Shown: positions 6,076 through 51,063, numbered from the stretch's first letter. The stretch is 64,000 nucleotides of DNA from Gigantopelta aegis (GCF_016097555.1 NW_024532772.1:3754-67753), one strand, 5' to 3'. Translations and numbers: made by a program. The notes: generated from the letters alone by a model not told the origin.

Positions 6076-6481
6076 TGATACCACATACAGGTAATAATAA
6101 ATCGACTTACTGGTGATAAATTATTTACAATACATTAATTTATACTATAAGTCAGAAATATTTGCAGATAGATTGTATAATGGATAGTCATACAGCACCC
6201 CTGTATCTTAAGTCATATCTGGACACTCTTTAAACTCCGAAATAAAGGAAGTATAGTCATCTTCCAACTTTAAACAAATTCAAAATTGAAAAAATCATAT
6301 CCATGGTTCAATTAGATGCAAATTCTCACTGTATAGCTAGAGTCTAAAATAAACCCCTTATAAAGTATATTGATATTAGATAATCATATCACTATGACAG
6401 AAACCCATACCCCTCATTTATCAACAAATCGTAGTATAGAAGCAAACAAAGGGTTAATTTTAATGAGCGCCACACAACATA

Positions 6482-6959: not shown

Positions 6960-8747
6960 CTCATGGTAATTTGAAGTATCTCATCTGAAGAGTTATAAAT
7001 AAAAAGCACATTGGAAACATAAATATTACTAACAGTAGTACCAATATGTAGTCTTATTTACACGATAGAAGAATCCACTAGCTCAGAAAATGTGTGACTC
7101 TTTAGGGTGACTCAACTCATGGTGATACTTACTTAGTTATGTGAGAATGTTCCAATAAATACTCAGACAGTCCTCTTATTTGGAATAATCCTCACACTTC
7201 TTGAAGTAGGTGATCTAAATCCTAATAAAGGTACTGCCGTGACAGTCTGAATGAAACAGTAATATCCTCTTTATCGAAAACGACCAAAAGTATAATGGAC
7301 TAACCAGCTATTGTTTAGCTAGTGGTCAATATGGTTACTCTTTTGTCATTTAGCTTCCATGAAGGTCTCATCTAGGTAGCAGTGATAGGGAACAATCCTA
7401 ATTGTATTAGCTCCAATAAATAAGATGGTGTAGCAACTCTTATGGTAGCCAGTAAAAATGGTCAGATCCAGAGTGAGAGAATCGTTTGAATTATTACTAG
7501 AGTAAATGGTAGATATTATGTTTCCATAAAATGTCCAAGACAGAAATGGACTAACAAGCTATTTGTTTGGCTAGCCAGAATGGTCACACCTTCTGTTGTT
7601 TCTAGCTCCTTACTTAACAATGGAGCATGATCCTAATGATTAGGTTTTAGAGAAAAACATAATAAAGGTACAACACCTCTTTATGGTAGCCAGTGTAAAT
7701 GGTCATGGAGGATAACTTTAATGAATTACAACATTATTAGAGCTAATGGAATGTCCAATAAATACCCAAGATTGAAAATGGACTAACAGCTATTTGTTTG
7801 GCTAGCGAGATGGGTCACTCTTCGTTGTTTTTCTATACCTACTTACCAATGGAGCAGACCATAACTTAACTAGTAATGAAGGTGCAAACACTCTATATGG
7901 TACCCAGTCTAAATGGTCATGGTGATATTGTTTGAATTAATTATTGAGAAGAATGTTCCAATAAATACAGCAAGATGAAGAGGACTAACAGCTACTTATT
8001 TGGCTAGCGAGGAATGGTCACTCTTCTGTTGTTTCTATCTTACTTCACAACAGTGCAGACCCCCTAACCAGCTAATAACAATGGCTGGACACCTTAATTG
8101 CAGCAGCAAGTAGAAATGGTCAGTGGTGAGTGTTGTTAAGTTATTACTAGAGAAGAATGTTCTTATAAATACCCAAGACCAAAAATGGAGTGACAGCTAT
8201 TTATAATGCTAGCCATAGTGGTCACATCTTCTGTTGCTTCTATCTTATTAACAAAGGGGCTGATCCCAACTTAGTCAGGGGGGGGGGGGGGGACCAATGG
8301 GGGACACCTCTTTTAATAGCTTCTGGCTGGAGGACATAATGAAAGTTGTGAGAGAGTTTATTGAAGACTCAATTGCAAAGTTAATATTAAGTTATCAAAT
8401 TCCAACTGGTACTACAGCATTGTACTTCTCAAGTTATTTGGACATGAAAATATGTGTTAGACAGCTACTGGAAGGTGGTGCTGATCCACTTATAAGAGAC
8501 ATGTTTGGTCATTCACCTCTAGATATAGCTCATCAACAAAGTCATCATAACATTGCATACTACTACTTCGAGAAGCTATGGCTGTTTTACATGATGTAGA
8601 TTATCAAGAGTCATTAGCAGGTTCTATTGAGTCAGGTTATTGTACACCTAGTAGACTATCAACTGATATTTATCAATAGCATACTCTGATATTGCAAAAA
8701 TATCTGATTCTAGAAGAAGATGATGATGTATATATAGTGATAAATTA
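6960..8747 (+). pseudogene. Unit 1: decayed ankyrin-repeat array plus conserved C-terminal tail of the DD-ANK family. 5' part absent
   Basis: Degenerate ANK motifs (GHSSVVS, ADPN, TPLM, NTQ) are broken by frameshifts every 30-60 bp. The 8297-8599 ORF matches the family C-terminus (QIPTGTTALYFSSYL...LLEGGADPLIRDMFGHSPLDIAHQ). It is followed by DYQESLAGSIESGY and the acidic LEEDDD end. Confidence 0.7.
8278..8292. repeat. poly(G) 15-mer
   Basis: Read directly. Confidence 0.9.
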
Positions 8748-9197
8748 GAAAGATAAGATTTGACAAGCTAATAAGTACAAGAATTGATGTTCCTATATAA
8801 AGCATTCAGCAAAGCAATTTGTATCATGATCATGAAAGTCATAAGATTGTTTGTTAACCCTAATAATTACTATATGTTTTTAATGTATTTTCCTTTTTAG
8901 TGATAAAGTGACCTGAAAGAAGTTAAGAGATACAAAACAATAAACATGAACATACATTTTTGAGATTTTTGGTATATTAGATTTAAAATGATACTGATAG
9001 TATACCAATGTTGTACGTTTATACATTGTTATTAATTATAATACCCTTTATTATAAATGAATATGAAACTTATAGCCCTACAGTCTTTTGTAATGTATAG
9101 TACATTAAATCATGTTAATAAGAGTAGTATTATTTCTGCTACAGCTAACTAAAGTAATACAATTATTGTCTTGGTTTAAAGAAATGGTTTTATAATA

Positions 9198-9198
<1 letters not shown>

Positions 9199-9242
<44 letters not shown>
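9199..9242. repeat. poly(A) ~44-mer
   Basis: Read directly. Confidence 0.9.
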
Positions 9243-9244: not shown

Positions 9245-9464
9245 ATAACTATTTAAGAAGAGTACTATCATCATAAGAACTGCAAGAATTATGTAATGAA
9301 ATGTCAAGAAAATCTTCAAACAGAAAGCAAATGTTCACTAAAGGTTATAAAAATCAAAATTTCAAACAGTTATCTGTTAAACGGTTTTACATAATATTGT
9401 CATATTAAATATATATAGGGAAGTTGTGTTCAGTAACTTCTATGAAAAGTTCATATCTAATTAA

Positions 9465-10480
9465 TTAACCAATTCAACACTGGGTTGATCCCTAGCATAA
9501 GATGAATAACTGGATGGATAGAGAAGAGAATGGACAGGTAGAAGGATCAACTTGTTCTTAAGTGAAGTACATGTATATAGAGTATTGTTACTTACTTATA
9601 ATATGGTCGTCCTGGTAATCCTTCTGGTAAAATAAATGATCTCTCTATGTTCATTAGTTTATTGTTAAGTATTCTAACTATATTCTCACTACAATACAAA
9701 GACAAAGATATAGTTAATAACTACTGGTATATACTAACTTGTCTGTGTCAGCAAATTTAATATGAGTATCATAAAGATTGGTAACAGCTGTTGAAAAGTC
9801 AGTTAAAGTCACTTCAAAAAAACATGCAATTTGTAGCTTACATGAGTAAAATTATACTATGGAATCCAAAAGTCATGTACAAAATAAGTTGGTACATGTT
9901 ATATATATGCAATCAGCTAATGATTCAGTGAGTAGTTTGTACAAACTTTGCATACCACAGCAATTAATTCAGTCATCCATTACAAGTAGTTGGTTGAGAA
10001 TAACTAATTCAATTCTTATGAAAGTCAGTTAATTATGAGTGAAGGAAATCTGTAGAAAAATGACATTATCATTAATATGTAAACTTTTATTATCTCAATT
10101 TGGTTCAAAACCAAATTAATATATCAAGTGAGCTTATTATAAGGTATTATAGTATAGGGTTTCTGTAAAGTTTAATAATTCATTGTATTACAATAGTTGG
10201 GTGAAAATAACTCATTAATTCTTATAGGAGAGCAAGTTAAATATGAGTGAAGAAAATCTGTAGAAAAATGACATTAGCAATTAATACACAAACTTTTATT
10301 ATCTCAATTTATGTCAAAACGGTGTCTTTATAATCAGGTAGTAGTTGTTTCTGTAAAGTTAATGATTCCTTGACATTATTCTAAGTTTCAGACACATAAT
10401 CTTCTATTGGATGAGACTGACCATTAACAGTTATGCTAGCACACCATGAAGCAACTCCAGTCAGTAGAATTAATAAATTT
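9465..10480 (-). pseudogene. GCPII/NAALADase-like gene relic (3'-terminal exon and exon-1 fragments; middle deleted)
   Basis: 9598-9750 is near-identical to 28850-28990 and 48690-48830. Reverse complement encodes [31 protein letters not shown], which matches GCPII [29 protein letters not shown]. 10390-10480 matches the exon-1 region 51470-51560. Confidence 0.6.
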
Positions 10481-10971
10481 TGAGCATGTTATAATTACCT
10501 TATATGGACAATTATATTATAGAACTTGAAAGGCTTAAATTACATTCCTGTCATTGCTAGCCCCCTTCTTGTTGTTCAAAGTAAACAAGTAAATTACAAC
10601 TTAATATCTCACACTACAATATTCCTTTTGTCAGCTTTAAACAGTTTTATAAACAAAGCCACAAAGATCTGATTGACTAGTTGGACTCTATACTAGCCAT
10701 TTATGAACTGAACTCATTGGTAATAGTATATATTGTGAAACTATCTCATTGGTAATAGTAATTATTTACTGGATATATCTCTGTCAAATAAAAAAGTGTA
10801 GACTAGTGGGTCTATTTCCTATCAAAGACAGTTTTGATACAGTCCTAGGTAGTGACAAAAGTGACTCAGCATTATTCTCTTTAGAAAATTTTATTATTAT
10901 CAAACTACTACTTTTTTGACAGAATTGCAAAAAAATACATCTTATATCTAGAGACTATTAGTACTTACACA

Positions 10972-11570
10972 ATGTCTGATAATACAGTCCACCTACTCTT
11001 GATATACTGTGTGATGAACTGAGACAAGTAGTTGAATGGGATCAAGTAGCTGTGTCTCTCAAGTTGTCTTTTGTCGATATTGAAGATGTCAGAGGACGAT
11101 TTTGCAACAATAAACTAGTGCAAAATGCATTCTTTACAAAAAATGATTAAACAAACCAACACTGTATATTCATGGTGTACTGTAGTTAATGCACTAGAAA
11201 AAGTGAACCTATAGAGTTGCTGAGAACAAATATGCTACTATTATAGATCAAGTTTACTGTACAACATGAAGGAGGCAGGAACAAATAATGACCAACATCA
11301 ACCACCATTAAAAATCAATTGAAAATAAATGCAACTTGAAAAAAACATAGTTGAAGAAATAATTAACTTAGAGACAAATTTGCTATGCTCGTTTTCAAAA
11401 AACATAGACATTTCCATGAAAAGTTTTTTTTACCATTACTTTCGATACTTGAAAGAATGTGGAGTACATGACAAATCTTCACCAGATGAAGCCCAATGTA
11501 TCATTTCATTGGAATATTTAAGAACTAAAATAATATACCCCCACCCTATAGTCATGTCGCCATTCTAAAT
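10972..11570 (+). pseudogene. Unit 2: DD-like exon (type A) with a 1-bp deletion, plus a fragment of the middle region. Truncated
   Basis: ATGTCTGATAAT...CTGTGTGATGAACTGAGACAAGTAGTTGAATGGGATCAAGTAGCTGTG is the paralogue of the 17129 exon and is frameshifted. The 11329 ORF carries the SPDEAQCI motif of the middle region. Confidence 0.65.
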
Positions 11571-11619
11571 TGATCCCCCAGACCAATTTTGCCTCCTAAA
11601 AATGGTTCCAGAGACTACT

Positions 11620-12440
11620 TTCAGTCTATTCCTGACTCCATTACCTCAATATCTATTGTGGCATAGTGACTGTTAGCGTTCTTATCACCAGTCTATTCCT
11701 GACTCCATTAACCTCAATATCTATTGTGGCATAGTGACTGTTAGCGTTCTTATCACCAGTCTATTCCTGACTCCATTACCTCAATAGCTATTGTGGCATA
11801 GTGACTATTAGCGTTCTTATTACTAGTCTACTCCTAACTCCATTAACTCAATAGCTATTGTTGGTCATAGTGACTGTTATAACATTCGTTATCACCAGTC
11901 TACTCCTGACTCCATTACCTCAATATCTATTGTGGATAGTGATTGTTAGTGTTCTTATCATCAGTCTACTCTTACTCCATTACCTCATATCTATTGTGGC
12001 ATAGTGACTGTTAACATTCTATATGACCAATACTCCACACCTCATTATTTCGATATCTATTGTGACGTAGTGACTATTAGCGTTTTTATCACTAGTCTAC
12101 TCCTGACTCCATTACCTCAATATCTATTGTGGCATAGTGACTGTTAGCATTCTTATCACCAGTCTATTCCTGAGCTCCATTACCATAATATCTATTGTAG
12201 CATAGTGACTGTTAGCGTTCTTATAACTAGACTACTCCTGATTCCATTACCTTAATATCTATTGTGGCATAGTGACTGTAACATTCTTATTACCAGTACT
12301 CCACACTTCATTACTTCGATATCTACCTTGACATGGTGATTGTTAGCGTTCTTACTCCACCACTCATTACTTCAATATCTATTGTAAATTAGTGACTGTT
12401 AACATTCTTATCACTAGTACTCCACACTCCTGCATATGTA
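11620..12440. repeat. Minisatellite: ~67 bp unit x ~12 (cagtctattcctgactccattacctcaatatctattgtggcatagtgactgttagcgttcttatcac)
   Basis: Head-to-tail units read directly. Related arrays occur at 21910-22120, 31620-32165 and 37860-38050, always just upstream of a DD exon. Confidence 0.9.
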
Positions 12441-12710
12441 CGTGGTTTTTACCTCCATTGTTTAAAATATTAGACTAATAACTTCTCTTGTGTATCAGTT
12501 AAATTGTTTATGGCATACAAGTTACATCATTGAGTGTACACCATATTTCTAGTGAATAGACTAAACCCCATAGAGAATCTATACTCACTGAGGTATGTAA
12601 TACTAATCAATATTATATATGGTAATGTATAGCGTGTTTCATATTGTTATGACAATATTGCAATCATAAGATTTTATTGTCTTTTTTCTTATATCATTCT
12701 ATAGTACGCA

Positions 12711-15129
12711 ATGTCTGATAATATCAGTCCCACCTAATGTTAATCTTTTATGTCGTGAACTGGAAGAAATATCTGAATGGGAAAAACTTGCAGTCTATCT
12801 CAATTTACCTGCTCATATATTCATGATGCCAAAGAATGTTACCCCACATGGAGGTATTTGGGAGCGCTGTGAAAAAGCATTGTGTACCAAAAATGGCTAG
12901 ACACAAAACCAATACTGTACATTCATGGCATACTATAGCTGATGCAGTATAGTAGAAAAAAGTAAATCTGCAGTTGCTGGGAACATTAGACAAAGTATAC
13001 TACTATTCTATGGATCAAGTGCATGAGAGATTACCAAATGCACAGATGTGATTCTAGTCACAATAATGAAGATGATGATTCAAGATTCATTAGTACTCCA
13101 GTCTGTATACTTCCAACAAACATCATAGAAGCGATTGCTAATCTACTAGACAGACATTTGCCCAATTACTCGCAGAAACTCAGAAAGAATTTGAAAAGAG
13201 ACCAGATTTACTTACACAGCTTGATCGATACGTGAAAACATTAACAGGCATAACCACATTACCAGATGGAAACTGAAGCAACATACAAAAAACTGTTTGA
13301 TGCATGGATAATAATATAACATCAACTGGCATTACCTTAATTGTTTACTTTCTTCAAAAATAGTTGAAGTGTTTCTTTCTGACACAGAATTGCCTGGAAA
13401 AGTGCAGATATATCAAAAAGATGCAACTGCAATTCATGAAGTCAAAGAAACTAAAGATTTTGTAAAGGAGATATTGTCAAAAAAAAAAAAAATGGATCAA
13501 TTCTGCTGCAAGTTAGTATTGATAGCAAAGGAGCAGACACAATCTATCATCTCAAAACGCAATTCATGATACAGTTGCATCATCTTATTGAGGAATGTAA
13601 TGAAGAGTCTTATTATGACATCTTTGTAGAGTAGGGTAATGTATACCGTAACTGGAGTGTTTCAAAAAATGCAGAAGCCATGCTAAGACCAACTATGCTA
13701 TAATATGACATCATAACAACACTCTGCCTAGAGATAATGTCAATAGCAATGATATAACTCCAGTCCCATTCAACCTTTTAGTAATGGTGTTTTCTTTTCA
13801 ATTATTCGCGGATGTTTGCACAAATAAAAAATGAAACACAGACTATTTATATTGCATCCAGAATGGTCACTTTTTCTGTTGTTTCTTTTTGCACTAACAA
13901 TGGGGCAGAGCCCGTAACCTAGCTAATAATGAGGGGGGGATATGACACCCTTACTGATTGCTAGCCAAATGGTCATGATTAACGTTTTGAGTTATTACTA
14001 AATATGTTCCTGTAAATACTCAAAACAATGAATGACAGCCGTTTACATTCAAAGCAGATGGTCAACTTTTCGGTTGTTTCTTCTATCTTGCTTAAATGAG
14101 TCAGAGCCTACATAACTACAAATATGGACACCTCTTATTATAGCTAGTGAAAAATGGTATGGTGAGTCGTTGGAGTTATTACTAGAGAAGAACGTTCCTA
14201 ATACTCAAACACAAGAATGAAGAGCTTGGCAAGCCAACTGGCCTGTATTTTCTATCGTTGCTTAATGGAGCAAAGCCACCATAACTACAAATAAATGGCT
14301 GACACCTCGTATGATTCTAAGTCAAAATGGTCATGATAAACGTTGTTTGAGTTATTACTAAGAATAGAATGTTCCTGTAATATTCAAACACACAGTGGAA
14401 TGACAACCCAATTGCCACGCCAGAATGGGTCACTTCCTCTGTTTTTTTCTATCTTGCTTACACAATGAGCAGAGCCTAACTAACTAACCAATAATGGGCT
14501 GGACACCTCTTATTTATAGCCGTGAAAATGGTTATATTGATGTCATTGAATTGTTACTAGAGGAAACTATGTCCAAATAATACACAAGAGATAATATAGA
14601 ACAACAGCCTTTATAGGAATGCTAGCCAATAGTGTCATACTAGCTTCTGTCAGCTTCTATCCTTACTTAACAAGGGGCTACGCCCCATTTAGGCAGGACC
14701 AATGGGTGGACACTCTTTTAATAGCTTCTGCTGGAGGACATAATGAGTTGTGAGTGAGTTATTGAAGACTCAAGTTAATATTAACCATCAAATTCCAACT
14801 GGCAATACAGCATTGTACTTCTCAAGTTATTTTGGACATGAAAATATCGTTAGACAGCTACTGGGAAAGTGGTGCTGATCCACTTATAAGAGACATGTTT
14901 GGTCGTTCACCTTTCATCAACCAAAGATATAGCTCATCAACAAAAGTCATCATAACATTGCATTACTACTTCGAGAATCTATGGCTGTTTTATGTGACAT
15001 AGATTACCAAGAGTCATTAGCAGGTTCTTTTGAGTCAGGTTATACAGCTGGTGGACTATCAACTTATTACTCATCAGTAGGATACTCTGATATTGCACAA
15101 ATTTCTGATCTAGAAGAAGATGATGATTG
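12711..15129 (+). pseudogene. Unit 3: DD-like exon (type B), middle region, ~9 decayed ANK repeats, C-terminal tail
   Basis: MSDNISP-type exon at 12711. Middle-region ORFs at 13023 and 13369 (TELPGKVQIYQKD). ANK relics at 13800-14700. C-terminal block at 14700-15129 (QIPTGNTALYFSSY...DYQESLAGSFESGY...SDLEEDDD) with many frameshifts. Confidence 0.7.
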
Positions 15130-15639
15130 ATATATATTAATAGATTATCAAAGGTAAGATTTGGCAAAGTAATAAAAAGTATTCTTTTTTTTCCTTAATA
15201 GAATAGTGTTAGTTACATGGAAATTATATAAGAATTAATGTTCATATTATAACGCATTCAGCAAAGCAATTTGTATCATGATCATGAAAGTCATAAGATT
15301 ATTTGTTAACCTATAAATTACTATAATTTTAATGTATTTTCCTTTTTAGTAAAAAGTGACCTGAAAAAGAAGTTAGGAGATACAAAACAATAAACATGAA
15401 CATACATTTTTGAGATTTTTGGTAATTAGATTTAAAATGATAACTGATAGTATACAGTGTTGTACATTTATACATTGCTATTGATTATAATACCCTTTAT
15501 TATAAATGAATATGAAACTTATCCACTACAGTCTTTTGTAACGTTACAGTACATTAAATCATGTCAATAAGAGTAGTAATTATTTCTGCTACAGCTAATA
15601 AACCATTGTTCTTAAGGGAAGTAACATGTATATAGAGTA

Positions 15640-16330
15640 TTGTTAATTATTTATAATATGGTGGTCATGGTAATTCTTCTGGTAAAATAATGATCTCTCT
15701 ATATTCATTAGTTTATTGTTAAGTATTCTAACTATATTCTCACTACAATACAGAGACAAAGATATAGTTAATAACTACTGTAATATACTAACTTGTCTGT
15801 GTCAGCATATTTTATGAGTGTATTATGAAGATTGGTAGCAGCTGTTCAACAAACCATGCAATTTGTAGCTTACATGAGTAAATTATATTATGGAATCCAA
15901 AATTCATGTGAATTACTCATGTACAAATAAGTTACTACATGTTATAGTCTATAGCAACCAGCTAATGATTCAGTGAGTAGTTTAAACAACTTTATACAAA
16001 GCTTGTGTTCCATAGCAATTAATCCAGTAATGTATTACAAATAGTTGGTGAAAATAACTTATTAATTCTTACAGGAGAGCCAGTTAAACATGAGTGAAGA
16101 AAATCTGTACAAAAATGACATTAGCAATTAATACACAAATTTTATTATCTCAATTTATGTCAAAACAGTGTCTTTATAATTATAATAGGTAGTAGTGTTT
16201 CTGTAAAGTTTAATGATTATTGACATCATTCTAAAGTTTCAGACACATAATCTCCTATTGGATGAGACTGACCATTAACAGTTACGCTAGCACACCATGA
16301 AGCAACTCCAGTTCATAAATTTTGAGCGTG
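15640..16330 (-). pseudogene. GCPII-like relic (3' exon and exon-1 fragments)
   Basis: 15660-15790 matches 9598-9750 and 28850-28990. 16230-16330 matches the exon-1 region 51470-51560. Confidence 0.6.
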
Positions 16331-16777
16331 TTATAATAATTTTGGACAATTATATTATAGAACTTGAAAGGCTTATCACATTCCTGTGGTTGGTAGCTCC
16401 CCCTTCTTGTTGTTGAAGGTAAGCAAGTAAACTACAACTGAATATCTCATACTACAATATCCTTTATGTCAGCTTTAAACAGTTTATGAACCAAAGCCAC
16501 AAGATCTGATTGACTATTTGGACTCTATACATACTAGCCTTTATAAACTGAACTCATTGGTAATAGTAATTATATACTGGATATATGTCTGTCAAAATAA
16601 GGTTGTAGACTAGTGGTCTATTTCCTATCAAGGACAGTTTTGACACAATCTAGGCGATGACAAAAGTGACTCAGCATTATCTTCTTCACAAAAATTTTAT
16701 TATTATCAAACTACTACTTTTTTGACAGAATTGCAAGAAACTAGATCTTATATCTAGAAACTATTATTACTTACATA

Positions 16778-17090
16778 ATGTCTGATAATATCAGTCCACC
16801 TACTGTTAAACTTTTATGTCGTGAACTGAAAGAAATATCTCAATGGGAAAAACTAGCAGTATATCTCAATTTACCTGATCATGGTTATCCAGGATGCCAA
16901 AGAATGTTACCCACATGGAGGTATTTGGGAACGCAAAAAAAGCATTGTCTAAAAAAAATGGCTAGATCAATCCAACACTACACATTCATGGGTGGTTATA
17001 GCTGATGCTGTAGAAGAAGTCAATGGTAGTCTTGCTGAGCATATCATTTCAAAAAAAGTATGCTAATATTCTAGATCAAGTGCCATCACA
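16778..17090 (+). other. Death-domain-like coding segment, type B
   Basis: Helix pattern LLCRELKEISQWEKLAVYLNLPDH...WLDQ.NT.HSW..IADAVE fits a six-helix DD signature (W..LA..L, I.D). Recognised by eye only. Confidence 0.5.
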
Positions 17091-17440: not shown

Positions 17441-20400
17441 AGACCAAGTAACTTTAACTATACAACACGAAGGATGTCAAACAATATGATCAACGTCAAA
17501 CTGCCATGAAAAACCAATTGAAAATGAAATGCAACTTGAAAAAAACATAGTTGAGGAAATAATTAACTTAGAAGACAAATTTGCTATGCTTGTTTCAAAA
17601 ACACAGACAACTTTAGAAAGAAGGCCAGAAATTCTTTTACCGTTACTTCGATACTTGAAAAAACGTGGAGTACATGACAAAAACGTCACCAGATGAAGCC
17701 CAATGTATCACATATAGCAGAGTATTTGATATACTACACACACATTGGAATTATCTCAAATGCCGACTTCTAGAAAGAATAATTCATAACTTTCTTTCTA
17801 ACACTGAATTACCACTTGAAGTGCAGAAATATCAAGATGAAATGACAGCATTCAAAGAATCGACAAAAATGAAAGATCTTGCTGACGTTATAAAAGCAAA
17901 GCAAAGACACCAGATAAGGAGCAAGTAGTGTTGAAAGTGAAGGAAATGTGGCTAGATGTAACATTAGAGCATTTTGAGTTCTGGTAAAGCTGCTTTTCCA
18001 AGAATATGATGAGTCACTTCAAAATATTGTTGTCAGAAAAGGCAGTGTAAATGTTACCTGGAGTGTTTCTAAAAGATAGCTCTCCTCATAACAAGATCTA
18101 AATTTGACATTGAAGTATTAAAAGCAATTGGAGTCATCTCACTAACAGTAGTAACTATTGTAGTCTTTAACAATGAAGACTCACAAGATGACATGACTAT
18201 TGACTCAGGTCTGTTGGGAGCTGTTCAATCTGGTGGTCCTCTTTCTGCTATATCTCTTCTTCTTGAAGTAGGTGGTAATCCTAACCTACTAACACAGTCA
18301 GGTGAAAACAGTAATATCCTACTTTTATCTAAAATGAAAAAATGATAATGGTACCACTGTGTTACATGTTGGTAGTAAATATGGTCACTCTTCAGTTGTT
18401 TCTACCTACTTAATAATGGGATAGACCCAAACTTAGTTAAGAATAATGGTTGCACACCTCTTATGATAGCCAGTCAGGATGGCCATGATGATGTCATTCA
18501 ACTGTTACTAAAGTCAAATGTAGCAATAAATACCCAGAGCAAAAATGGAATAACAGCAAATTATATTGCAAGTCAGAATGGTTGCTTTTCTGTTTGTTTC
18601 TACCTTACTTAACAATGGGGCAGACCCTAACCTATGCAACAGTGATGGCTGGACACCTCTAATGGCAGCCAGTAAGAAGGTCATGATGATATTGTTGAAT
18701 TATTACTAAAGAGAAATGCCTTGTAAACACCAAAACAAAGAATGGAGCAACTGCAATTTATATAGCTAGCCAGAATGGTCACACTTCAGTTGTCTCTACT
18801 TTATTTAGGAATGGGGCAGATCCCCAATTTAGGTAGGAATGATGGGTTGGACACCTCTTGTATCAGCCAGTTTGAATGGTCATGGCGATGTCATTCCATT
18901 ATTACTGGATATGAATATTGCCATAAATATTCAAGGTAAAGGATGGGACATCAGCCATTGATCTTGCAAGCTTGAATGGTCATTTTATTTATTGTCTCTA
19001 ACTTACTTAACAATGGTGCAAACCCTAACGTTACTAGAAATGATGGTTGGACACCCTCTTATGGCAGGAAGTCAAAATGGCCATAGTGATATCGTTGAGT
19101 TATTACTAGAGAAGAATGTCCAATAAATACTCAAAACGTTGATGGAATAACAGCCATTTTCTACTGCCAGCCACTTGGCCATTCTTCTGTTGTTTTCTAC
19201 TACTTACTTAACATGGTGCAGACCCTAACCTAGCTGACAATGATGGCTGGACCACTCTCATGGTAGCCAGTCAGAATGGTCATTGTGATGTTGTTGAGTT
19301 ATTACTTGAAAATATGCTCAGATAAACACTAAAAACAAGCGAGGAGTGACAGCCATTTACATTGCTAGCAATAATGGTCACTCTTCTGTTGTCTCTACTA
19401 CCTATTTAGCAATGGGGCAGACCTAAGCTAGCTAGAAATAATGGTTGGACACCTCTTATGGCAGCTAGTAAGAATGGTCATGTTTGTGTTGTCTAGATGT
19501 TGATAGAGAAAAGATTCCCATAAATGCTCAAAACAAGCATGGAGCAACTGCTATTTATATTGCTAGTCAAAATGGTCACTCTCCATTGTTTCTCTTTTAC
19601 TTAGCTATTATGCAGACCTAATCTAGTCAATAATGATGGTTTTGGACACCTCTTATAGTAGCCAGTCAAAATGGTCATAGTGATGTTGTTGAATTATTAC
19701 TAGAGAAGAATGTTTCAATAAATGCTCAGAACAAAATTGGAAAAACAGCCATTCATATTGCCAGTCAAAGTGGCTACTCTTCCATTGTCTCAACATTACT
19801 CAACAAAGGAGCAGACCCTAATCTACCAGACAACAATGGTTGGACACCTCTTATGGCAGCCTGTTTGAATGGTTGTAGTGATGTCTTTCGATTATTACTG
19901 GAGGTAAATGTTCCAATAAATACTCAAGGTAAAGATGGAACAACAGCTATTGACCTTGCAAGCCTAAATGGTCACTCTTCTATGGTTGTCTGCCTTGCTT
20001 AGTAATGGTGCAGATCTTAACCTATCTAGAAATGATGGCTGGACACCTCTTATTGTAGCAGTCAGAATGGTCATGGTGATGTGTTTGAGTTATTACTAGA
20101 GAAGAATGTTTTGATAAATGCACAGAGCACAGATGGAATAACTGCCATTTCTATTGCTAGCCAGAATGGTCACTCTTCTGTCATTTTTACTTTACTTAAA
20201 AATGGCGCAGACCTAAAACTTAGCTGACAAATCTTGTTGGACACCTTTGATGGTAGCTAGTCAGAATGGTCATGATGATGTCGTGAAGCTATTACTAAAA
20301 CAAATTAATGTTTGCCATCAATACCCAAAACACAATGGAGCAACAGCTATTTATTTTGCTTGCAAGAACGGGCCATTTCTTCAGTTGTTTCCACATTACT

Positions 20401-21329
20401 TAACAATGGAGCAGACTCAAACATAGTCAAAAATAATGGCTTAACACCACTTATGGCAGCCAGCAAGAATGGTCATGTTGATGTCATTCAAGCGCTACTA
20501 CAGAGAAATGTACCAATAAATAGTCAAACTAATGATGGGAAAACAGCCATTTATCTTGCTAGTCAAAATGGTCATTCTTCTGTTGTTTCTACTTTACTTA
20601 CCGATGGGCAGACCCTAATGTAGCTAAGAATGATGGTTGGACACCTCTTATGATAGCCAGCACCAAAGGACATGGCAATGTTGTGAAAGAGATATTGAAG
20701 ACTCAAGCTAATATCAATCATCAAACTCCTACAGGTACTACAGCATTGCATCTTTCTAGTCAATATGGATATGAGGATATTGTTAAACAGCTATAGAAGG
20801 TGGTGCTAATCCACTTATAAGAGATATGTTGGGCTGGACACCTCTGATATAGCTCATCAAGAAGGTTGCCATAACATTGTATCACTACTTTTTGCTGGTT
20901 TCCGGCAAGACAATTATCAAGAGTCATTAGCAGGTTCTGTTGAGTCAGGTTATGTAACTGGTAGATTATCAACTAACCGTCATCATCAGCAGACTCTGAG
21001 TCATTGCAAATTAATGTAGGGAATTGAGAAACATTAACAAATGTCCAGAACACCTTCTCTACCTATCATTGAATTGACACAATAAGAAATTCTTAATTTT
21101 GTATAACCTATAATTTTTCTAAATATTTGCATTGTTGCTATGCTCTTGACATGTTGATGATTTTAATAATATTATATATTTATTGTTAGTGATATTGAAC
21201 ACTAATAGTTAGTTTGGTACAATACTTTCCCTACTTACAAAGCAATGACACTGATTTTCTGGCAAAATGCCTGGTTCATTACTGATGAAAGCAGATCATT
21301 ATATATAACATAATATAATATAATACATT

Positions 21330-21440
21330 AATACAGCTATGCCACTATAGGATCAACTGCTCCAAATGTCCATGCATGTATTATGATGAATATCTAATAT
21401 AACTAGTTTGATTTTATCTAACAAGTCTAGTCTACTAGGG
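21330..21440 (-). pseudogene. Isolated relic of the GCPII zinc-ligand exon ([14 protein letters not shown]...)
   Basis: ccactataggatcaactgctccaaatgtccatgcatg matches 30370-30420 and 50070-50110. Confidence 0.55.
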
Positions 21441-21909
21441 GATATATTTATAATGGTTGTGTATGAATAATATGGTTATGGCCACCAAAAACAACTCCTT
21501 CACGTGCAGCTACTCATATTCCAATTGAGTAGGCGTTAGGAATGTTTTTTTGATGTGGTTTCTTAGGAATGTGAAACTATGTCCAATGTGGGTGTGTATT
21601 AGTTATGCAAACAAAGGAAATGTAATAAGCCCCACCTCCTATTTTGTGCAAAGCGTCTTTTTATTCTGGTAAGCTCTTTAGCATTTCTCACACATTTTTA
21701 CTTATTTTTAACCTTTAACAGATTTGAGTAAGACTGTTGTTGTAAAGATCTGTTCTTCTCTATCTCTCTGAGCGACATTTTTCTCTACCACATGCTGCAT
21801 GCTGCACTATAAGACAAACTAAGCTTATTAGTAATAGAGAATCTGCTTGCTACTTCTGTCAATACTAATACTAGTTGTTTCATAATATTATCAATACTTG
21901 GAGGTATAT

Positions 21910-22120
21910 TTACTGTGACAGAGTAAGCCATTATTACCAATCTACTCTTGACTCAATTATCTCAATATCTATTGTGATATAGCGACTGTTAGAGTTCTTT
22001 CTTGTTTCAGTTCTCTTTTAAGTCATTTACCAATCTGCTCTTATCTCAATATATCTATTTTACGTGACACAGTGACTGTTAGTATTCTTACTACCAGTTT
22101 CACTCACTTACTTCATTATT
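21910..22120. repeat. Minisatellite-like array (~3 units) related to 11620-12440
   Basis: Repeated motif ctcaatatctattgtgatatagcgactgttag. Confidence 0.7.
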
Positions 22121-22394
22121 TACTAACTGTTTAATGTAACGTGATATAACTGTACATTGTTGAATTATAGCTACTAGCAACTTACTGTCTATTCATTAAT
22201 GACACTGAGAAAGATTCATCATTCATTTTATTGATCAGTAAGTGGATTTATCATTAGCATTACTATTAGAATATTAGTAAATTTGTATTTAATAATTTAG
22301 TGATTTTACAACTAACTACTATAAAAACTGATAAAATAGTTTTCCTTGAGTGTAGTTTATATTATTGTTTTATAATTCATTTACAGTTCATATA

Positions 22395-25300
22395 ATGTCT
22401 GATAATCTCAGTCCACCTACTCTTGATCTACTGTGTGATGCTAAGACAAGTAGTAGAATGGGATCAAGTAGCTGTAAGTCTCAAAGTATCTTATGTGGAT
22501 ATTAAAAGTATTGAGACACAATATTCTTGAATTAGCGCAGCGCAGAATACATTCTTTACAAAAATGGTTAGATCAAGCCAACACTGTACATTCATGGTGT
22601 ACTATAGCTGATGCAGTAGAAAAAGCAAATCCCTGCAGTTGCTGAGAACATTAGAACAAAGTACCTACTATTATAGATCTAGTACCATCCACTTCGCGAC
22701 ATGAAAAAATCTAAGCCTAAATGTAAAAAAAACAAACATAGTCCAACTAGTTACTTTATGAATAAGACAAACAAGTTATTACAACAAATCAAATGCCACA
22801 GCATAAGAAATGTAGTGTAAATGATGACCAACATCAAGCTATTATTGAAGAGCAGCAAATCATTCAGCTTCAAGTATCTTCAAATTCACAGCATAAAGAA
22901 TCTAGTGATACTCATCAATGAAATTATACAACCAGTACTAGTGATATCATTGAACAGCAAACAATTAATGGAGAGTGGAGTAAAGCTTGAAAGAAATATA
23001 GTCCAAGAAATCATGACTTTCTTGAGAGATTTGCAGCATTATTTTTCAGAAACTCAATCATTTTAGAAGAAAAACCAAAAATCCTTTTGCCTTTTTATCG
23101 ATACTTAAAGATTCTAATAGGTGAAGCATTACCAAGATGAATCTGGCATCACGTATGACAAACTATTTAATATGCTAGATAACTATTGGCATTACCTCAA
23201 TATCAACTTCTTCAAAGAATAATTAAACGATTTCTTTCCGACACTGAATTACCTCATGAAGTACAAGAATATCAAGATGATATAGTAGCATTTAAAAAAT
23301 CAACGAAAAAGAGAGATCTTGTAGATAATGTGAGATCAAAAAAGAGCACATCAGGTATGTACAAGTAGCATTGACAGTGGAGGAAGTATGGCTAGAGTCA
23401 CACTAGAGCATTTGAGTTTCTGGTAAAACTACTTTTTCAAGAATATGATAAATCACTTCAAGTTGTAGTTGTTCAAGAAGGTAGCTTGGTATATTGCTGG
23501 AGTCTTCTGAAGACCATAGCTTTCGCCTTCTTACAAATCCAAATTTGACCACAAAGTGCTAAAAGCAATTGGAGTCATCTCACTAACAGTAGGTACTGAT
23601 GTAGTCTTTAACAATGGAAGACTCACAAGACGATATGACATTTGACTCAGCTCTGTTGAGAGCTGTACAATCTGCATGGTCCCCTTTCTGCTATATCTCT
23701 ACTTCTTGAAGTAGGTGGTAATCCTAACCTACTAACACAGTCAGGAGAAACAGTGATATCTACTTTGTCTGCAATAAAAGATGATAATGGGACTACTGTG
23801 TTAATTATTGCTAGTAAATATGGTCACTCTTCTGTTGTCTCTACCTTACTTAGTAATAGGGGCAGATCCCAACATAGTTAACAATGATGGTTCCACACCT
23901 CTTATTGTAGCCAGTCAAAATGGTCAGCTGATATAATTAAGTTACTACTAGAGAAGAATGTTCCAGGTAAATATCCAAAACAAAGAAGGAGTAACAGCCG
24001 TTTGTATTGCTGGTCACCATGGTCACTCTTCTGTCGTCTCTAACTTACTAGCAATGGCAGATCCCAACATAGCTATGATGATGGCTGGACACCTCTTATG
24101 GCAGCCAGTGGAAATGGTCATGGTGATGTTGTTGAGTTATTATTAGAGAAGACTTCCAGTAAATACTAAAACAATTAATGAGTAAGAACAGACCATTTAT
24201 ATTGCTAGCCAGAATGGTTGTTCTTCTGTCATCGTCTTTCTTACTTAGCAATAGTGCAAATCCTAATATGCCTGACAATGATGGCTATACCCTCTTATGG
24301 TAGCCAGTGTAAATGGTCATGGTGATATTGTTGACATACTACTTAATAAAAGTGTTCCAGTAAATATCCAAAAACAATTATGGAACACAAGCTATTTATG
24401 TTGCTAGCCAGAATGGTTATACTTCTATTGTGTCTTCCTTACTCAACAATGGGGGCAGACCCTTATTTATCTGACAATGATGGTTGTACACCTCTTATGA
24501 TACTATTGAAAAAGGTCATAGTGATGTTCATTCAACCCCAATTTATTATTAAGCATAAGGTACCAATAAATACCAATCCAAAAGAGGGAACGAAACTGCA
24601 ATTTTTATTTTTGATTAGCAAGACTGGCCATTCTTCTGTTGTTTCTACCTTACTTAACAATGTGCAGATCCAAACATAGCTATGAATGATGGCTGGAGAC
24701 ACCCTCTTATGGCAGCCAGTGGGAGGTGTCATGGTGATGTTGTGTTAAGCTATTGCTAGAGAAGAATGCTCCAGTAAATAGCCCCAAACAAAAATGGAGG
24801 CTACAGCAATTTATATTGCTTGCTTGACTGGGCATCCATGTTGTTACTACTTTAATTAACAATGGGGCAGATCCTAACATACCCAAGATCAATGGTTGGA
24901 CACCTCTTATGATAGCCAGTCTAAATGGTTATGGTGATGTTGTTGACTTATTATTAGAGAAAAAAGTTCTAGTAAACACTCAAACCAAAAATGGTAGTAA
25001 CAGCCATTTGTATTGCTAGTCACATGGTCACTCTTCTGTTTGTCTCTATTTTACTGGCGCAGTAGGGCAGATCCTAACCTAGCTACAATGATGGACATGG
25101 ACACCACTAATGTCGCCAGTGTAAAATGGTCATGGTGATGTCATTGAGATACTACTTAATAAGAATGTTCCATTAATATCCAAGACAATATGGAAGAACA
25201 GCCATTTTTATTTGCTAGCAGAGTAGTCACTCTTCTGTCGTCTCTCTAACTTACTTAGCAATGGGCAGATCCAACATAGCTATGAATGATGGCTGACACC

Positions 25301-27768
25301 TCTTATGGCAGCCAGTGGAGGTGGTTTGGTGTGATGTTTGTTAAGCTATTACTAGAGAATAAATGTTCCAGTAAATACCCAAAACAAAAAATGGAGCTAC
25401 AGCAATTATATTGCTTGCTTGACTGGCACTCCACTGTTTTACTACTTTAATTAACATGGGGCAGATCCTAACATACCCAGGATCAATGGTGGACACCTCT
25501 TATGATAGCCATCAAAATGGTCATGGTGACAATCGTTGACTTATTATTAGAGAAGATGTTCCAGTAAACACTCAACCCAAAAGGGAGTAACAGCTATTTG
25601 TATTGCTTGCTTGATGGGCACTCCACTGTTGGTGCTACTACTTTAATTACAATGGGGGCAGATCCTAATTTACCTGACATGAAGGCTGGACACCCTCTTA
25701 TGGCAGCCAGTAAAAGCGGTATTGTGGGTTTTGGTAGTGATGTCATTGAGATACTACTAAGAATAATGTTCTGGTAAATACCCAAACCAAAAAGGGAGTA
25801 ACAGCCCTTTGTATCGCTAGTCACCATGGTCACTCTTCTGTTTGTCTCTATTTTACTAAGCAATGGGGCGATCCTACCTAGCTACAATGATGGCTATACA
25901 CCTCTTATGGCAGCCAGTGTAAATGGTCATGGCGATATTGTTGACATAGCTACTAATAAAAATGTTCTAGTAAATATCCAAAAACAATTATGGAACAACA
26001 GCGATATTTATGTTGCTAGCCAGATGGTTATTCTCTATTGTGTCTTCCTTACTTAACAATATGGGCAGACCCTAATGTTATCTGACATGATGGCTGTACA
26101 GCTCTTATGATAGCTATTGAAAAGGTCATAGTGATGTCATTCAATTATTATTAAAGCATAAGGTACCAATAAATACCCAATCCAAGATGGAGGAGAAACT
26201 GCAATTTTATTTTTTTAGCAAAACTGGTCATTCTTCTGTTGTTTCTACCTTACTTAACAATGGTGCAGATCCTAACATAGCTATGAACAATGGCTGGACA
26301 CTCTTATGATAGCTATTGAAAAAGATCATAGTAATGTCATTCAATTATTATTAAAGGCATAAGGTACCAATAAATACCCAATCCAAAGATGGAGAAACTG
26401 CAATTTATTTTTTTAGCAAACTGGTCACTCTTCTGTTGTTTCTACCTTACTTTAACAATGGTGCAGATCCTAACATAGCTATGAATGATGGCTGGACACC
26501 TCTTATGGCAGCCATTCAAATAGTCATAGTGATGTCATTGAGATCCTACTAGAGAAGAATGTTCTATTAAATACCCAAACAAAGAAGGAGTAACGCTATT
26601 TGTATTGCTAGCCACCATGTCACTTTTTTGTTGTTTCTACCTTACTTAGCAATGGGGCTGCCTCCCAACATAGCTGAAACGAAAGCTGGACAGCCTCCTT
26701 ATAGTAGCCAAGTCACTCTTCATAGGTCATACTGATGTCATTGAGATACTACTAGAGAGAATATTCAAGTAATACCCAACCAATAAGGAATAACGGCCAT
26801 TTGTATTGCTAGTCACCAGGGTGGTCATTCTTCTGTTTGTTTCTACCTTGCTTAGGCAATGATGCAGATCCCGAACCTACTAGCTGACAATGATGGTTGG
26901 ACACCTCTTATGAACAGCCGTAATAAATGGTCCTGTATGATGTCGTTGGATACTCTTAATAATAATGTGTTCTTGTAAACACTCAAACAATTATGGAAGA
27001 ACAGCTTTTATGTTGCTAGCCAGAGTGGTCACTCTTCTGTTGTTTCTTCCTTCTTAAGTAATGGGGCTGACCCTATTTACCTGACAATGATGGCTGGACA
27101 CCTCTTTATGGCAGCCAGTGGAGGTGGTCATGGTGATGTTGTTAAATTATTACTAGAGAACAATGTTCCAATAAAATACCCAAACAAAAATGGTGCTACA
27201 GCAATATTATGCTTTGCTTGACTGGGCACTCTTCTTGTCATTACGTACTTTAATTAACAATGGAGCAGATCCTAACATATCCAGGACAAAATGGTTGGAC
27301 ACCTCTTATGATAGCCTGTGGCCAAAGGACGATGACAATGTTATAAGAGGAGTATTAATGACCCGAATTAATATCAATCATCAAACGCCTCCTACTGGTA
27401 AACTACAGTCATTATATCTTTCTAGTCAATATGGATATGAGAATATTGTTAGAACGCTACTGAATGGTGGTGCTAATTCCACTTATAAGAAACATGTCAG
27501 GCATGACACCACTAGATAGAGCTATCAAAAAGGTCATCATAATATGTTATCACTAACTTCAAGAAACTAATACTGGTTTCCACGACGACATGATGCAAGG
27601 CATCATTAGTAGGTTCGTAGAGTCAGGCTACATACAACTGGTGGACTATCACTGATCACTCATCAGTAGTAGACTTCTGATGTTTGACCGATTCTGATCT
27701 AGAAGAAGACAATCCTCAACTCCTCCAATTTAAATTAGTAGGTAAGGTTTATGTAGTCAAGAACTTGT
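22395..27768 (+). pseudogene. Unit 5: DD-like exon (type A variant), middle region, ~36 heavily decayed ANK repeats, C-terminal tail
   Basis: ATGTCTGATAATCTCAGTCCACCTACTCTTGATCTACTGTGTGATG at 22395 is frameshifted. Middle ORFs at 22821 and 23186 (TELPHEVQEYQDDIVAFKKSTKKRDL). ANK relics at 23700-27300. C-terminus 27190 ORF (...LSSQYGYENIVRTLLNGGAN) and ...DLEEDNPQLLQFKLVGKVYVVKNL at 27700-27768. Confidence 0.7.
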
Positions 27769-28547
27769 GAGAGCCAATATCTAATAATGCATACACTAAA
27801 CTAATTGATTTAAACTAATACATTACTTAGTCATCTAATCACTTCACAGAAGGAAACTCTGATGTTGGCCAAGTGTCAAATATAAAGGAATACAATGATG
27901 ATACCCTCTCTTCTTACACTGAACCAAGCACACTAAGACAAGAGATATAATGTAGAAAAACAATAAAGTACTTATTTCCAGTTAATGCAATGTTAATAAG
28001 AATAGAATTTCAATTGAACTTCAATAACTGATGTTTCTAATTGAAAATTTCAAAAGCATTCTGTAAAATTAATGTGTATTGGTCAATTATTAGTTATAAA
28101 GCACATTACATGACTGTAATAGAAACAATGATCATTGTAATACAAAGAATTATCTAGAAGGATCTTGTAAATACTGAAAACCACATGATAGTTTAAATAA
28201 TTTAAATATTTATTTATATTTCATATATTTTAGGGACAAAATCACCTTACACATTACTGAAATATATCTTCAAAATGAACATAATTCATAAAACTTACTG
28301 ATTACTTTAATTATTAATGGTTTTAGTATGTTATTGTATCTTGTTAATTAATTATTTTGTATTAATTAAAATCCATATTTTATGAAACTACATTGCTTGA
28401 AATCCTAATACTAACAGTATATTATAACAGACTTTGTTTACAAATAATTATTTGTTTTAATTATTATAATATGATCTGTTGTGTTTAACTTTTTTGTATA
28501 ATTATAATTAACAATAAAGTTATAATACTTTCAAATGTAATTAATTA

Positions 28548-30227: not shown

Positions 30228-30267
<40 letters not shown>

Positions 30268-30720
30268 CTTCCTCTCTCTCACCTCTCTCTCTCTCTCTCT
30301 CATTCTTACCTGTGTTCCTCAGAAAGTCACCTAAACACTCGAGCTATGTCCATTAATACAGCTGTACCACTATTAGGATCAACTGCTCCAAATGTCCATG
30401 CATCATGATGATTACCTAACATAACAAGATGATCTGAGAAGAGAGAGAGAGAGAGAGAGAGAAAGATAGTAAGTAGTACAACAGTCACTATTGATCAACC
30501 TGGTTCTACTTTTCCATATATAACAGCAATACATTACTAATAGTCTCTTCCCTCTAATATATTATTTACTTGAAGGAAAATTAAACTATTAATAAACAAA
30601 GATAAACACACATTAGATCAGACATACTTTGTGTTACTAGTAGATTGATAGATATAGTAAGTGGTAATTTTAGTTCTCCCTTTCCATGACAAATGGAACT
30701 TCATATGTATCTAATTGACT
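28548..30720 (-). pseudogene. GCPII/NAALADase-like copy A: 3' two-thirds only, with frameshifts
   Basis: Collinear with 48350-50400 (- strand) and 53200-55335 (+ strand). Contains the [20 protein letters not shown] exon at 30320-30420 and the [15 protein letters not shown] exon at 30600-30700. Homology ends abruptly near 30720. Confidence 0.7.
30235..30300. repeat. (TC)n microsatellite in a GCPII intron. A (GA)n run lies at 30440-30466 on the other side of the same exon
   Basis: Read directly. The same intronic positions carry GA/TC runs in copies B and C. Confidence 0.9.
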
Positions 30721-32165: not shown

Positions 32166-32214
32166 GTTTACCTAGCTTATGATTGTTAGTATTTGTTACA
32201 GTTCATGATTCACA

Positions 32215-36829: not shown

Positions 36830-36898
36830 GACAATTATCAAGAGTCATTAGCAGGTCCTGTTGATTCAGGTTATGTAACTGGTAGATTAATCAACTAA
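36830..36898 (+). pseudogene. Terminal coding exon DNYQESLAGPVDSGYVTGRLIN* after acceptor ..tttctgcag
   Basis: Polypyrimidine tract plus AG acceptor. Homologous to the contiguous tail of unit 4 (20890-20990). The block 36830-38320 is a duplicate of 20900-22390. Confidence 0.5.

Positions 36899-51010: not shown

Positions 51011-51063
<53 letters not shown>

Follow-up and report, generated by a model that had tools for sequence, protein, structure and literature searches.

How did pieces of a GCPII-like peptidase gene come to lie in every spacer of an array of death-domain/ankyrin (DD-ANK) genes? The stretch of DNA analysed here, called the window (64,000 nucleotides), is demosponge nuclear DNA that carries a tandem array of six intronless DD-ANK genes. 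A preliminary description of the window proposed an ancestral cassette, with the DD-ANK gene on the plus strand and the GCPII-like gene on the minus strand, which was duplicated as a block, with more and more of the peptidase gene being lost from copy to copy. A literature search gave nothing beyond general background on the expansion of death-domain genes in sponges. The window was compared with an independent contig (L001, 96.6-98% identical) and with two paralogous arrays from independent assemblies (L002 and L003). The peptidase source gene, the spacer fragments and the boundaries between duplicated blocks are described below.

Results and discussion

The peptidase gene and its long copies

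In a protein search, the top match of the source gene of the spacer relics is Amphimedon NAALADL1 (53% identity, E 1e-231). According to the Pfam analysis of a composite of the exons of copies A and B, the PA, Peptidase_M28 and TFR_dimer architecture is present: TFR_dimer (5e-26), Peptidase_M28 (3.2e-6) and PA (2.7e-4, where 21.4 bits is slightly below the 23.9-bit cut-off). PF04253, PF02225 and PF04389 are present in all homologues found, and the sequence can be aligned to the solved GCPII and GCPIII structures. The same three matches are given by GCPII, NAALADase and NAALADL1 (MEROPS M28B, transferrin-receptor-like), and the GCPII/NAALADL1 genes have the same H..D zinc-ligand and SWDAEE motifs, both of which can be aligned here to solved GCPII/GCPIII, and the same multi-exon organization of about 17 exons. 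As judged from its sequence, the source gene is a GCPII-like M28B peptidase gene of about 17 exons (E1-E17).

The H..D motif is located in E8. Twelve letters of E8 align to HRDSWVFGAIDP of solved GCPIII, and 18 letters align with LGGHRDSWVFGAIDPTSG of GCPIII 3fec. We take the zinc ligands of the GxHxD...D(P) motif to be His377 and Asp387 in human numbering. The exon that the preliminary description named as the zinc-ligand exon is thus correctly named. The relic exon that it regarded as 3'-terminal is the penultimate one (E16 of about 17), and the exon encoding HVIFAPSS... comes after it.

Only two copies in the window are full length; the third long copy and the relics are fragments. Copy A (48339-51734, minus strand, about 17 exons) and copy B (51871-55333, plus strand) are arranged head-to-head. 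According to blastn, 48339-51728 matches 55333-51895 in inverted orientation at 89.6%, and the substitution difference between A and B is 6.5%. The full pair placed at 48350-55335 in the preliminary description is indeed two full-length copies, and its orientation can now be specified as head-to-head. The two start codons are only 137 bp apart, so that at least one of the two copies is probably without its native promoter. In these respects, the full length of A and B only and the short distance between their ATGs, the locus is unlike GCPII/NAALADL1 genes.

Copy C (28538-30720, minus strand, 2.2 kb) consists of E6-E17 with all the introns of this range, and is cut 3 bp upstream of E6. It shows 89% identity to B 53176-55332 by blastn. 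In L001, no frameshift is present in E6-E17 of A or in E6-E16 of C. E1-E5 of A and the entire copy B were read from the error-rich window sequence only, as were spacers 1-3.

The DD-ANK genes

The 186-aa ORF of unit 6 is matched by Pfam PF00531 (Death), weakly when read directly from the window (E 0.0034), and Ank ORFs follow directly. In L001, unit 5 is one ORF of 1262 aa with 19 Ank stretches. The paralogues P0122 and P0125 contain both PF00531 and Ank. A death domain at the N terminus and an ankyrin array within one ORF are thus found for the DD-ANK partner.

Unit 1 (7196-8740, plus strand), delimited by self-blast and tail alignment, has a short ANK array and a conserved 3' tail (8351-8720). 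An intergenic piece, named X (9288-9407, no strand assigned), precedes the GCPII 3' end, and it is common to spacer 5 (36502-36665) and L002 with 71-78% identity. Remnants of the ANK tail and X were sought downstream of B as a mark of the ancestral position, and none was found there. The Rfam scan of the window gave no matches. A poly(A) run of about 45 nt is located at 9194-9241, and the window contains a 1-kb poly-C tract.

Relics in the spacers

The window was searched with copy B by blastn, and with an nhmmer profile built from copies A, B and C. Both searches detected GCPII-like fragments on the minus strand in every spacer of the array, with E-values from 3e-119 down to 1e-4 for the spacer pieces. 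The pieces reported in the preliminary description (9465-10480, 15640-16330, 21330-21440, 37250-37330, 28548-30720 and 48350-55335) are all present, with limits that differ by a few to about 40 bases. A weak nhmmer match at 6161-6261 (E 0.005) was judged to be due to chance.

In spacer 1, four minus-strand pieces are arranged collinearly with B. The final 35 bp or so of the terminal exon E17 and the stop region are located at 9454-9494 (E 1e-4 by nhmmer, 9e-6 by blastn). The segment 9503-9807 (91% to B, E 3e-119) contains the 3' part of E15, intron 15, E16 with an intact reading frame, and 95 bp of intron 16; we call this segment young. The old segment, 10021-10316, contains the end of intron 14 and the first 28 bp or so of E15 (about 78%). 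It is doubled (10021-10155 and 10227-10316) by a tandem duplication of about 209 bp. This old piece is short and AT-rich, with E about 1e-9. The 3' third of exon 1 is located at 10378-10475 (83%, E 1.6e-21 by blastn).

The relic of spacer 2, also on the minus strand, is collinear with B as well. The segment 15598-15850 (92%, E 1e-98) contains the 3' part of E15, intron 15, an E16 interrupted by a stop codon, and 51 bp of intron 16, and it is followed by the intron 14/E15 5' piece (16074-16162) and the exon-1 fragment (16217-16315, E 1.3e-22). Some 400 bp of the spacer-1 sequence is deleted here, which brings the segment 15598-15850 directly against the sequence downstream of unit 2.

The relics of spacers 3 and 5 are different. 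Spacer 3 retains the 5' two-thirds of E8, beginning at the exon acceptor site (21326-21407, minus strand, 84%, E 8e-19). Spacer 5 holds two relics on the minus strand. Relic 5a is a degenerate stub of the terminal exon E17 (36670-36724, E 2.6e-6 in the window), which is located at 7807-7854 in the cleaner contig L001 (E 6.9e-10). Relic 5b is an E8 fragment of the same class as in spacer 3 (37245-37320, 87%, E 1.5e-15), and a translation of 24 residues is read from it in L001. The E8 piece of spacer 5 was correctly recognized in the preliminary description, but it does not stand alone, as the E17 stub is a separate relic. We considered the two pieces as one collinear relic, and this was dropped since an ANK-tail fragment sits between them.

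The preliminary description would have been contradicted by similarity confined to low-complexity sequence and not collinear with the exons of B. The relic similarity is in unique sequence and extends over intron 15 and a portion of intron 16.

Common breakpoints and duplication junctions

The GCPII DNA has one orientation and one position relative to the ANK 3' tail in every spacer. Spacers 1 and 2 have an identical 5' truncation and an identical internal deletion of 2.5 kb. Spacers 3 and 5 have the same E8 relic with common breakpoints, inside a block of 86% identity (20862-23777 and 36778-39679). As the breakpoints are common to these relics, each deletion arose once and was then copied. 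According to self-blast, larger duplicated blocks are 20862-27321/36778-43171 and 23821-30720/43666-50409. The 5' truncation of copy C coincides with the end of the latter.

The E17 stub is directly followed by a fragment of the ANK 3' tail (36778-36922, plus strand), which is the left end of the block 36778-43171. The window, L001 and the paralogous array L002 all show the junction between the stub and the ANK-tail fragment. It is a tandem-duplication junction; thus the stub was probably born truncated and would never have been a full gene. At the 20862/36778 boundary the original seems to be the left copy, and at the 30720/50409 boundary it seems to be the right one. These blocks are compatible with more than one order of events, and the order given below is inferred.

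The relics are collinear and co-oriented, their flanks are duplicated and their junctions are common, which are the features of non-processed partial duplicates. Introns are kept in the fragments, and the fragments are thus genomic copies. L002 and L003 have the same relics and the same architecture. L003 contains two E15-E17 relics with one 5' breakpoint (profile position 2913) and an E8 relic.

These observations bear on the progressive loss described above, in which a full two-gene cassette was duplicated and each copy then decayed independently. Every spacer does have GCPII DNA in the right orientation, and the retained length grows roughly from left to right, from the relics to C and then to A and B. 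However, the relic classes do not form a nested series: spacers 1 and 2 have E1 and E15-E17 without E8, spacers 3 and 5b have E8 only, and the E17 stub of spacer 5a is a third class. The breakpoints are identical within spacers 1/2 and within spacers 3/5, the stub is located at a duplication junction, spacer 5 has two separate relics, and the relic of spacers 1 and 2 combines parts of different age, as described below. Independent decay of a full cassette is thus unlikely, and the claim that successive copies lost progressively more is not upheld. The other part of the proposal survives in a modified form: the convergent neighbourhood was copied at the DNA level, with the same relics in L002 and L003, but the amounts varied and the stub was probably born truncated.

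A relic of mixed age

The exon-1 fragment of spacer 1 is 96% identical to its counterpart in spacer 2, and 81-85% identical to A and B. In the exon-1 fragment, 12 of 79 sites are fixed differences between gene and relic, compared with 0 of 237 in the E15-E16 segment (Fisher p = 3e-8). Units 1 and 2 have ANK tails with 77-79% identity to that of unit 6, whereas the identity of the adjacent relic is about 91%. The intergenic sequence is unalignable. On these identities, the remainder of the relic is far older than its E15-E16 segment.

Interlocus gene conversion between a gene and pseudogene fragments is known from CYP21A2/CYP21A1P-type systems. The relic resembles these in a patch of a few hundred bases that is more gene-like than the adjacent relic and flank, and in a boundary where continuous homology breaks off. 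Unlike in those systems, the direction and timing here are only inferred. The identity contrasts, across short segments of 79 to 260 sites, suggest that the 3' part of the relic was probably replaced with sequence of an intact copy through gene conversion. Conversion shortly before units 1 and 2 separated would account for a segment younger than both its relic and the neighbouring ANK sequence. The young segment may instead be a recent secondary acquisition. Since the exon-1 fragment is absent from L003, it could itself have been acquired secondarily by the spacer 1/2 relic and not be ancestral.

Function could also keep the segments gene-like, for example if read-through from the DD-ANK genes were antisense to E15-E17. 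In the window, L002 and L003 alike, the divergence of the E15-E17 segments is 3 to 5 times lower than that of their flanks, and spacer 1 and the two L003 relics retain an uninterrupted E16 ORF. However, intron and exon parts are equally conserved, E16 of spacer 2 carries a stop and the 3' part is missing there, and the spacer-5 stub is degenerate. We consider a functional role very unlikely, and presume that the relics are functionless. There is slightly less chance still that the segments are maintained by recurrent conversion or selection and that read-through antisense against the intact GCPII-like genes couples the two families; if this were true, antisense from DD-ANK read-through would link the regulation of the DD-ANK and GCPII-like genes.

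Mobile elements and assembly quality

Spreading by a mobile element (capture of gene fragments) or by retroposition was also considered. An insert of about 214 bp splits E15 in the spacer 1/2 relic and is flanked by repeated TTAACTGACTTT(T)C, the poly(A) run described above is present, and the DD-ANK genes are intronless. Nevertheless, introns are kept in the relics: spacers 1 and 2 retain intron 15 with a portion of intron 16, and C retains all the introns of its range, which is not the form of a processed pseudogene. The relics have a constant place relative to the ANK tail with co-duplicated flanks. The terminal inverted repeats are at chance level only, and at five extra loci examined the insert and its flanks are found at homologous positions only, unlike a captured fragment. 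A mobile origin is thus extremely unlikely.

The window is poor at the level of single bases, with 311 gap openings against 234 mismatches to L001. L001 reads the same exons and the 1262-aa DD-ANK ORF cleanly, so that most of the frameshifts across the window are indel errors of the assembly. Many 1-bp indels and substitutions evenly spread over codon positions had at first led to a reading of A, B, C and all the ANK units as pseudogenes; this was rejected in view of the clean exons and long ORFs of L001. That the repeats and relics are themselves an artefact of collapsed or chimeric repeats, or of a fold-back giving the A/B palindrome, is scarcely credible: despite the indel errors and the poly-C tract, L001 reproduces 28819-50404 with C, A and the two spacer-5 relics, the difference between A and B far exceeds the error level, and L002 and L003 share the architecture.

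Proposed history

We consider it likely that the debris observed in the spacers was left by repeated duplications in which the DD-ANK gene was accompanied by more or less of its convergent GCPII-like neighbour. In the ancestral state, a GCPII-like gene of about 17 exons would have been located tail-to-tail downstream of a DD-ANK gene. Repeated duplications at the DNA level, by tandem or unequal-crossover events and one inverted event, would have carried the DD-ANK gene and varying stretches of the neighbour. The debris is of at least four kinds. The first, the last-exon stub fused to an ANK-tail fragment (spacer 5a and L002), would have been truncated at birth. The second, part of E1 joined to E15-E17 by the single 2.5-kb deletion (spacers 1 and 2), would have formed once and then been copied with its unit, after the putative conversion of its 3' part; a 3'-only version is present twice in L003. 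The third, the lone E8 fragment (spacers 3 and 5b, and L003), would also have formed once, and been copied within a block of about 10 kb. The fourth is the 5'-truncated copy C, presumably ended by the block boundary.

The relics are what repeated segmental duplication ordinarily leaves behind, and they do not represent a novel type of element. Partial-duplicate pseudogenes of immune-type clusters are likewise intron-containing fragments in a fixed orientation and position to the amplified gene, with common breakpoints passed on by later duplications and a junction that fuses parts of two genes. Nothing essential differs here; the pair of DD-ANK and GCPII-like genes and the sponge lineage are new instances.

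The uses of these results are modest, and no long-standing question is opened by them. For annotation, the many frameshifts in the window should be regarded as assembly errors and not as pseudogenisation, and the short ORFs of GCPII-like sequence in the spacers should be read as junk and not as genes. The locus provides a worked example of the growth of a lineage-specific DD-ANK immune-type array, in which the fragments of a neighbouring gene serve as breakpoint markers.

Array and source gene

Self-comparison of the window showed six tandem units of the death-domain/ankyrin (DD-ANK) gene on the + strand. The ankyrin (ANK) arrays lie at about 7196–8274 (unit 1), 13817–14730 (unit 2), 18338–20690 (unit 3), 23805–27320 (unit 4), 33480–35620 (unit 5) and 39679–47170 (unit 6). 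In each unit, a death-domain segment and a middle segment of ~800 bp are followed by the ANK array and a conserved 3' tail of ~350 bp. Spacers 1 and 2 contain orphan death-domain segments (10968–11503, including the start of the middle domain, and 16774–17083) upstream of the real one of the next unit; they represent additional DD-ANK units in truncated form. Upstream of DD-ANK units there is a ~68-bp satellite (11622–12430, 21931–21999 and 37858–38055), which has grown to ~800 bp in spacer 1. Its position is conserved in two paralogous arrays, L002 (2188–2573, 12737–13535) and L003 (12598–12714).

The window is AT-rich eukaryotic DNA with a GC content of ~27–39% outside an almost pure poly-C tract of ~1 kb (1690–2700, + strand, GC skew about -0.6). 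The tract probably arose as an artefact of sequencing or assembly; otherwise it is an extreme homopolymer. At about 62007–62543 on the - strand, RNA-recognition-motif-like ORF fragments (GFGFITFKDAETV..., ...FAEFGDILECTIMKD...) suggest an unrelated gene of this type past the array end.

The glutamate-carboxypeptidase-II-like (GCPII) gene has ~17 exons (E1–E17), as modelled with the retrieved protein P0001 and the consensus of copies A, B and C as guides. According to the database searches, the composite of the peptidase exons best matches Amphimedon queenslandica NAALADL1 (53% identity, E 1e-231), with further sponge GCPII-like proteins ranking next, and contains the Pfam domains TFR_dimer, Peptidase_M28 and PA. 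These matches assign the window to a demosponge, although its gene is not the Amphimedon one. The E6–E10 translation can be aligned to the solved GCPII, GCPIII and NAALADL structures, and in this alignment E8 (copy B 53484–53603, +) encodes the His/Asp zinc-ligand motif. E16 (54907–54996, +) is the penultimate exon, and was called 3'-terminal in the preliminary description; E17 (55131–55322, +), encoding HVIFAPSS...IKWVN, comes after it.

The full pair and the fuller copy described earlier were both recovered. Copies A (48339–51734, -) and B (51871–55333, +) are the head-to-head arms of an inverted duplication (48339–55333), with an identity of 89.6% when gaps are included and 93.5% by substitutions only. 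Their start codons are 137 bp apart (51734–51871), and nearly all the sequence upstream of them was removed by the duplication. Thus, at least one of the two probably lacks the native promoter. Copy C (28538–30720, -) retains E6–E17 with introns, and its homology ends 3 bp upstream of E6. The sequence after the truncated copy (30720–32196) is found once in the window, and contains a ~65-bp direct repeat (30725–30790, 31031–31090) and a ~56-bp tandem repeat (~31650–32150).

Frameshifts and assembly quality

One-bp frameshifts are apparent throughout all genes of the window, and the genes were read as pseudogenes at first. An independent contig of the same locus, L001 (ENA ERZ21830300, ctg715763l, 216.7 kb), was reached from a DD-ANK query through the protein P0121 (98% identical). 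L001 1–21728 corresponds to window 28819–50404 at 96.6–98% identity, with 311 gap openings and 234 mismatches. In L001, E6–E17 of copy A and E6–E16 of copy C are free of frameshifts. The two copies differ there at 18 of 978 exon sites with no coding indels, and at 45 of 802 non-coding sites with 8 indels. Unit 5 in L001 is one ORF of 1262 aa, and unit 6 (L001 9441–18903) consists of three ORFs of 186, 575 and 2347 aa; the 1262-aa and 2347-aa ORFs are broken up in the window. With clean exons and long ORFs in L001, the pseudogene reading was dropped. The window frameshifts are mostly assembly indel errors, a badly damaged allele being less likely, and they are therefore unusable for pseudogene calls. 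Because the window is rich in such errors, substitution-only identities were used for relic comparisons. Unit 5 is intact, whereas unit 6 may be a genuinely disrupted gene since it is split even in the cleaner L001. The unit-6 ANK array is about twice as long as that of unit 4 owing to internal duplication, and differs by one 198-bp repeat between the window and L001.

Relics and their breakpoints

The window was searched by blastn with copy B and by nhmmer with a profile of A, B and C. Both searches agree on the relic set and gave no further convincing GCPII pieces in the window. All pieces lie on the - strand of the spacers, as had been described for those of spacers 1 and 2. Spacer 1 contains the 3' third of E1 (10378–10475), the end of intron 14 with the initial ~28 bp of E15, in two copies owing to a ~209-bp tandem duplication (10227–10316, 10021–10155), the 3' part of E15 through intron 15, E16 and 95 bp of intron 16 (9503–9807), and, where a deletion of 200 bp has ended, the final ~35 bp of E17 (9454–9494). 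Spacer 2 has the same organisation (16217–16315, 16074–16162, 15598–15850) without the tandem duplication and without ~400 bp, which in spacer 1 include the intergenic piece X (9288–9407) as well as the end of E17. A poly(A) run of ~45 nt (9194–9241) lies within these ~400 bp, at a distance of ~450 bp from ANK unit 1 on its downstream side; possible sources are the tail of a retroelement, a microsatellite or an artefact.

E15 of the spacer 1/2 relic is split by a ~214-bp sequence (9808–10020, 15845–16071), which also occurs in L003 (2316–2453, 9175–9317). The motif TTAACTGACTTT(T)C is present on both flanks, resembling a target-site duplication. In the sequences examined, no copies of the insert were found outside homologous positions.

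The breakpoint mapping proposed in the preliminary description gave a common 5' truncation inside E1 (profile position ~245–254) and a common 2.5-kb internal deletion (~340–350 to ~2782–2844) for spacers 1 and 2. The two relics are 90–97% identical along their length (substitutions only). This relic would have formed once and then been copied along with its unit.

The recurring zinc-ligand exon corresponds to ~80 bp of E8, from the acceptor site on, in spacers 3 (21326–21407) and 5 (37245–37320). These pieces lie within an 86%-identical block (20862–23777 and 36778–39679), a part of a larger duplication (20862–27321 and 36778–43171). An overlapping block (23821–30720 and 43666–50409) pairs unit 4 and copy C with unit 6 and copy A, and copy C terminates at its edge. 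Spacer 5 also contains an E17 stub (36670–36724). An ANK 3' tail fragment (36778–36922), the left end of the duplicated block, follows within 55 bp, so the GCPII pieces of spacer 5 belong to different relics.

This architecture is better preserved in L002 (ERZ21862620, ctg187747l), where an ANK tail is followed by piece X, an E17 stub of 150 bp (E 1.4e-41) and directly an ANK-tail fragment. The fusion is the junction of a tandem duplication that broke within E17 on one side and within the ANK tail on the other. Thus, this relic class was never a whole gene. L003 (ctg189295l) contains two ~550-bp relics that extend from the 3' part of E15 through E17 and share their 5' breakpoint with those of spacers 1 and 2; an E8 relic lies further along. 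No GCPII fragments were found within ±10 kb of two further DD-ANK loci (L004 and L005).

Mosaic age of the spacer 1/2 relic

In the E1 fragment, the identity between spacers 1 and 2 is 96%, and that of either to A and B is 81–85%. Fixed gene-versus-relic differences occupy 12 of 79 sites in E1 and 0 of 237 in the E15–E16 segment (Fisher p = 3e-8), where the pattern is star-like and the copies are about equidistant from one another. Units 1 and 2 share only 77–79% identity with unit 6 in their ANK tails, and ~700 bp of intergenic sequence is unalignable, yet the next relic is ~91% identical. The L002 E17 stub is 94–97% identical to A and C, whereas its flanks are 72–78%. The young segment starts precisely where continuous gene homology returns past the ~214-bp insert.

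From these comparisons, we infer an old relic, which dates back about as far as the unit divergence. Gene conversion, with an intact copy as donor, probably replaced its longest homologous stretch; this would have occurred a short time before the separation of units 1 and 2 (and of the L003 relics). Secondary acquisition of the young segment is a possible alternative to conversion. The segment is unlikely to be under selection, given that its intron and exon parts are conserved equally and several relic copies are broken.

Origin of the relics

Transposon capture or retroposition would place GCPII fragments in the spacers without duplication of a neighbouring gene. Against this, intron sequence is kept, so the relics are not retrocopies; their position is constant, their flanks are co-duplicated, terminal repeats are absent, and in the sequences examined the ~214-bp insert and its flanks occur at homologous sites only. 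An assembly artefact is opposed by the reproduction of C, A and the spacer-5 relics in L001 and by the 6.5% substitution divergence of A and B.

The preliminary description derived the spacers from a cassette of a DD-ANK gene (+) and a GCPII-like gene (-) whose copies lost progressively more of the peptidase gene. The ancestral neighbourhood of the two genes stands; progressive loss is wrong, since the contents of the relic classes are not nested. The relics are independent truncations and deletions, each copied afterwards. Tandem duplication is a known route of expansion for death-domain immune-type families of sponges (PMC3879445). The relics are a standard result of tandem and segmental duplication where a gene family is clustered and lineage-specifically expanded, with non-processed partial copies of a neighbouring gene marking the duplication junctions. 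The novelty is confined to one more instance of this known duplication biology.
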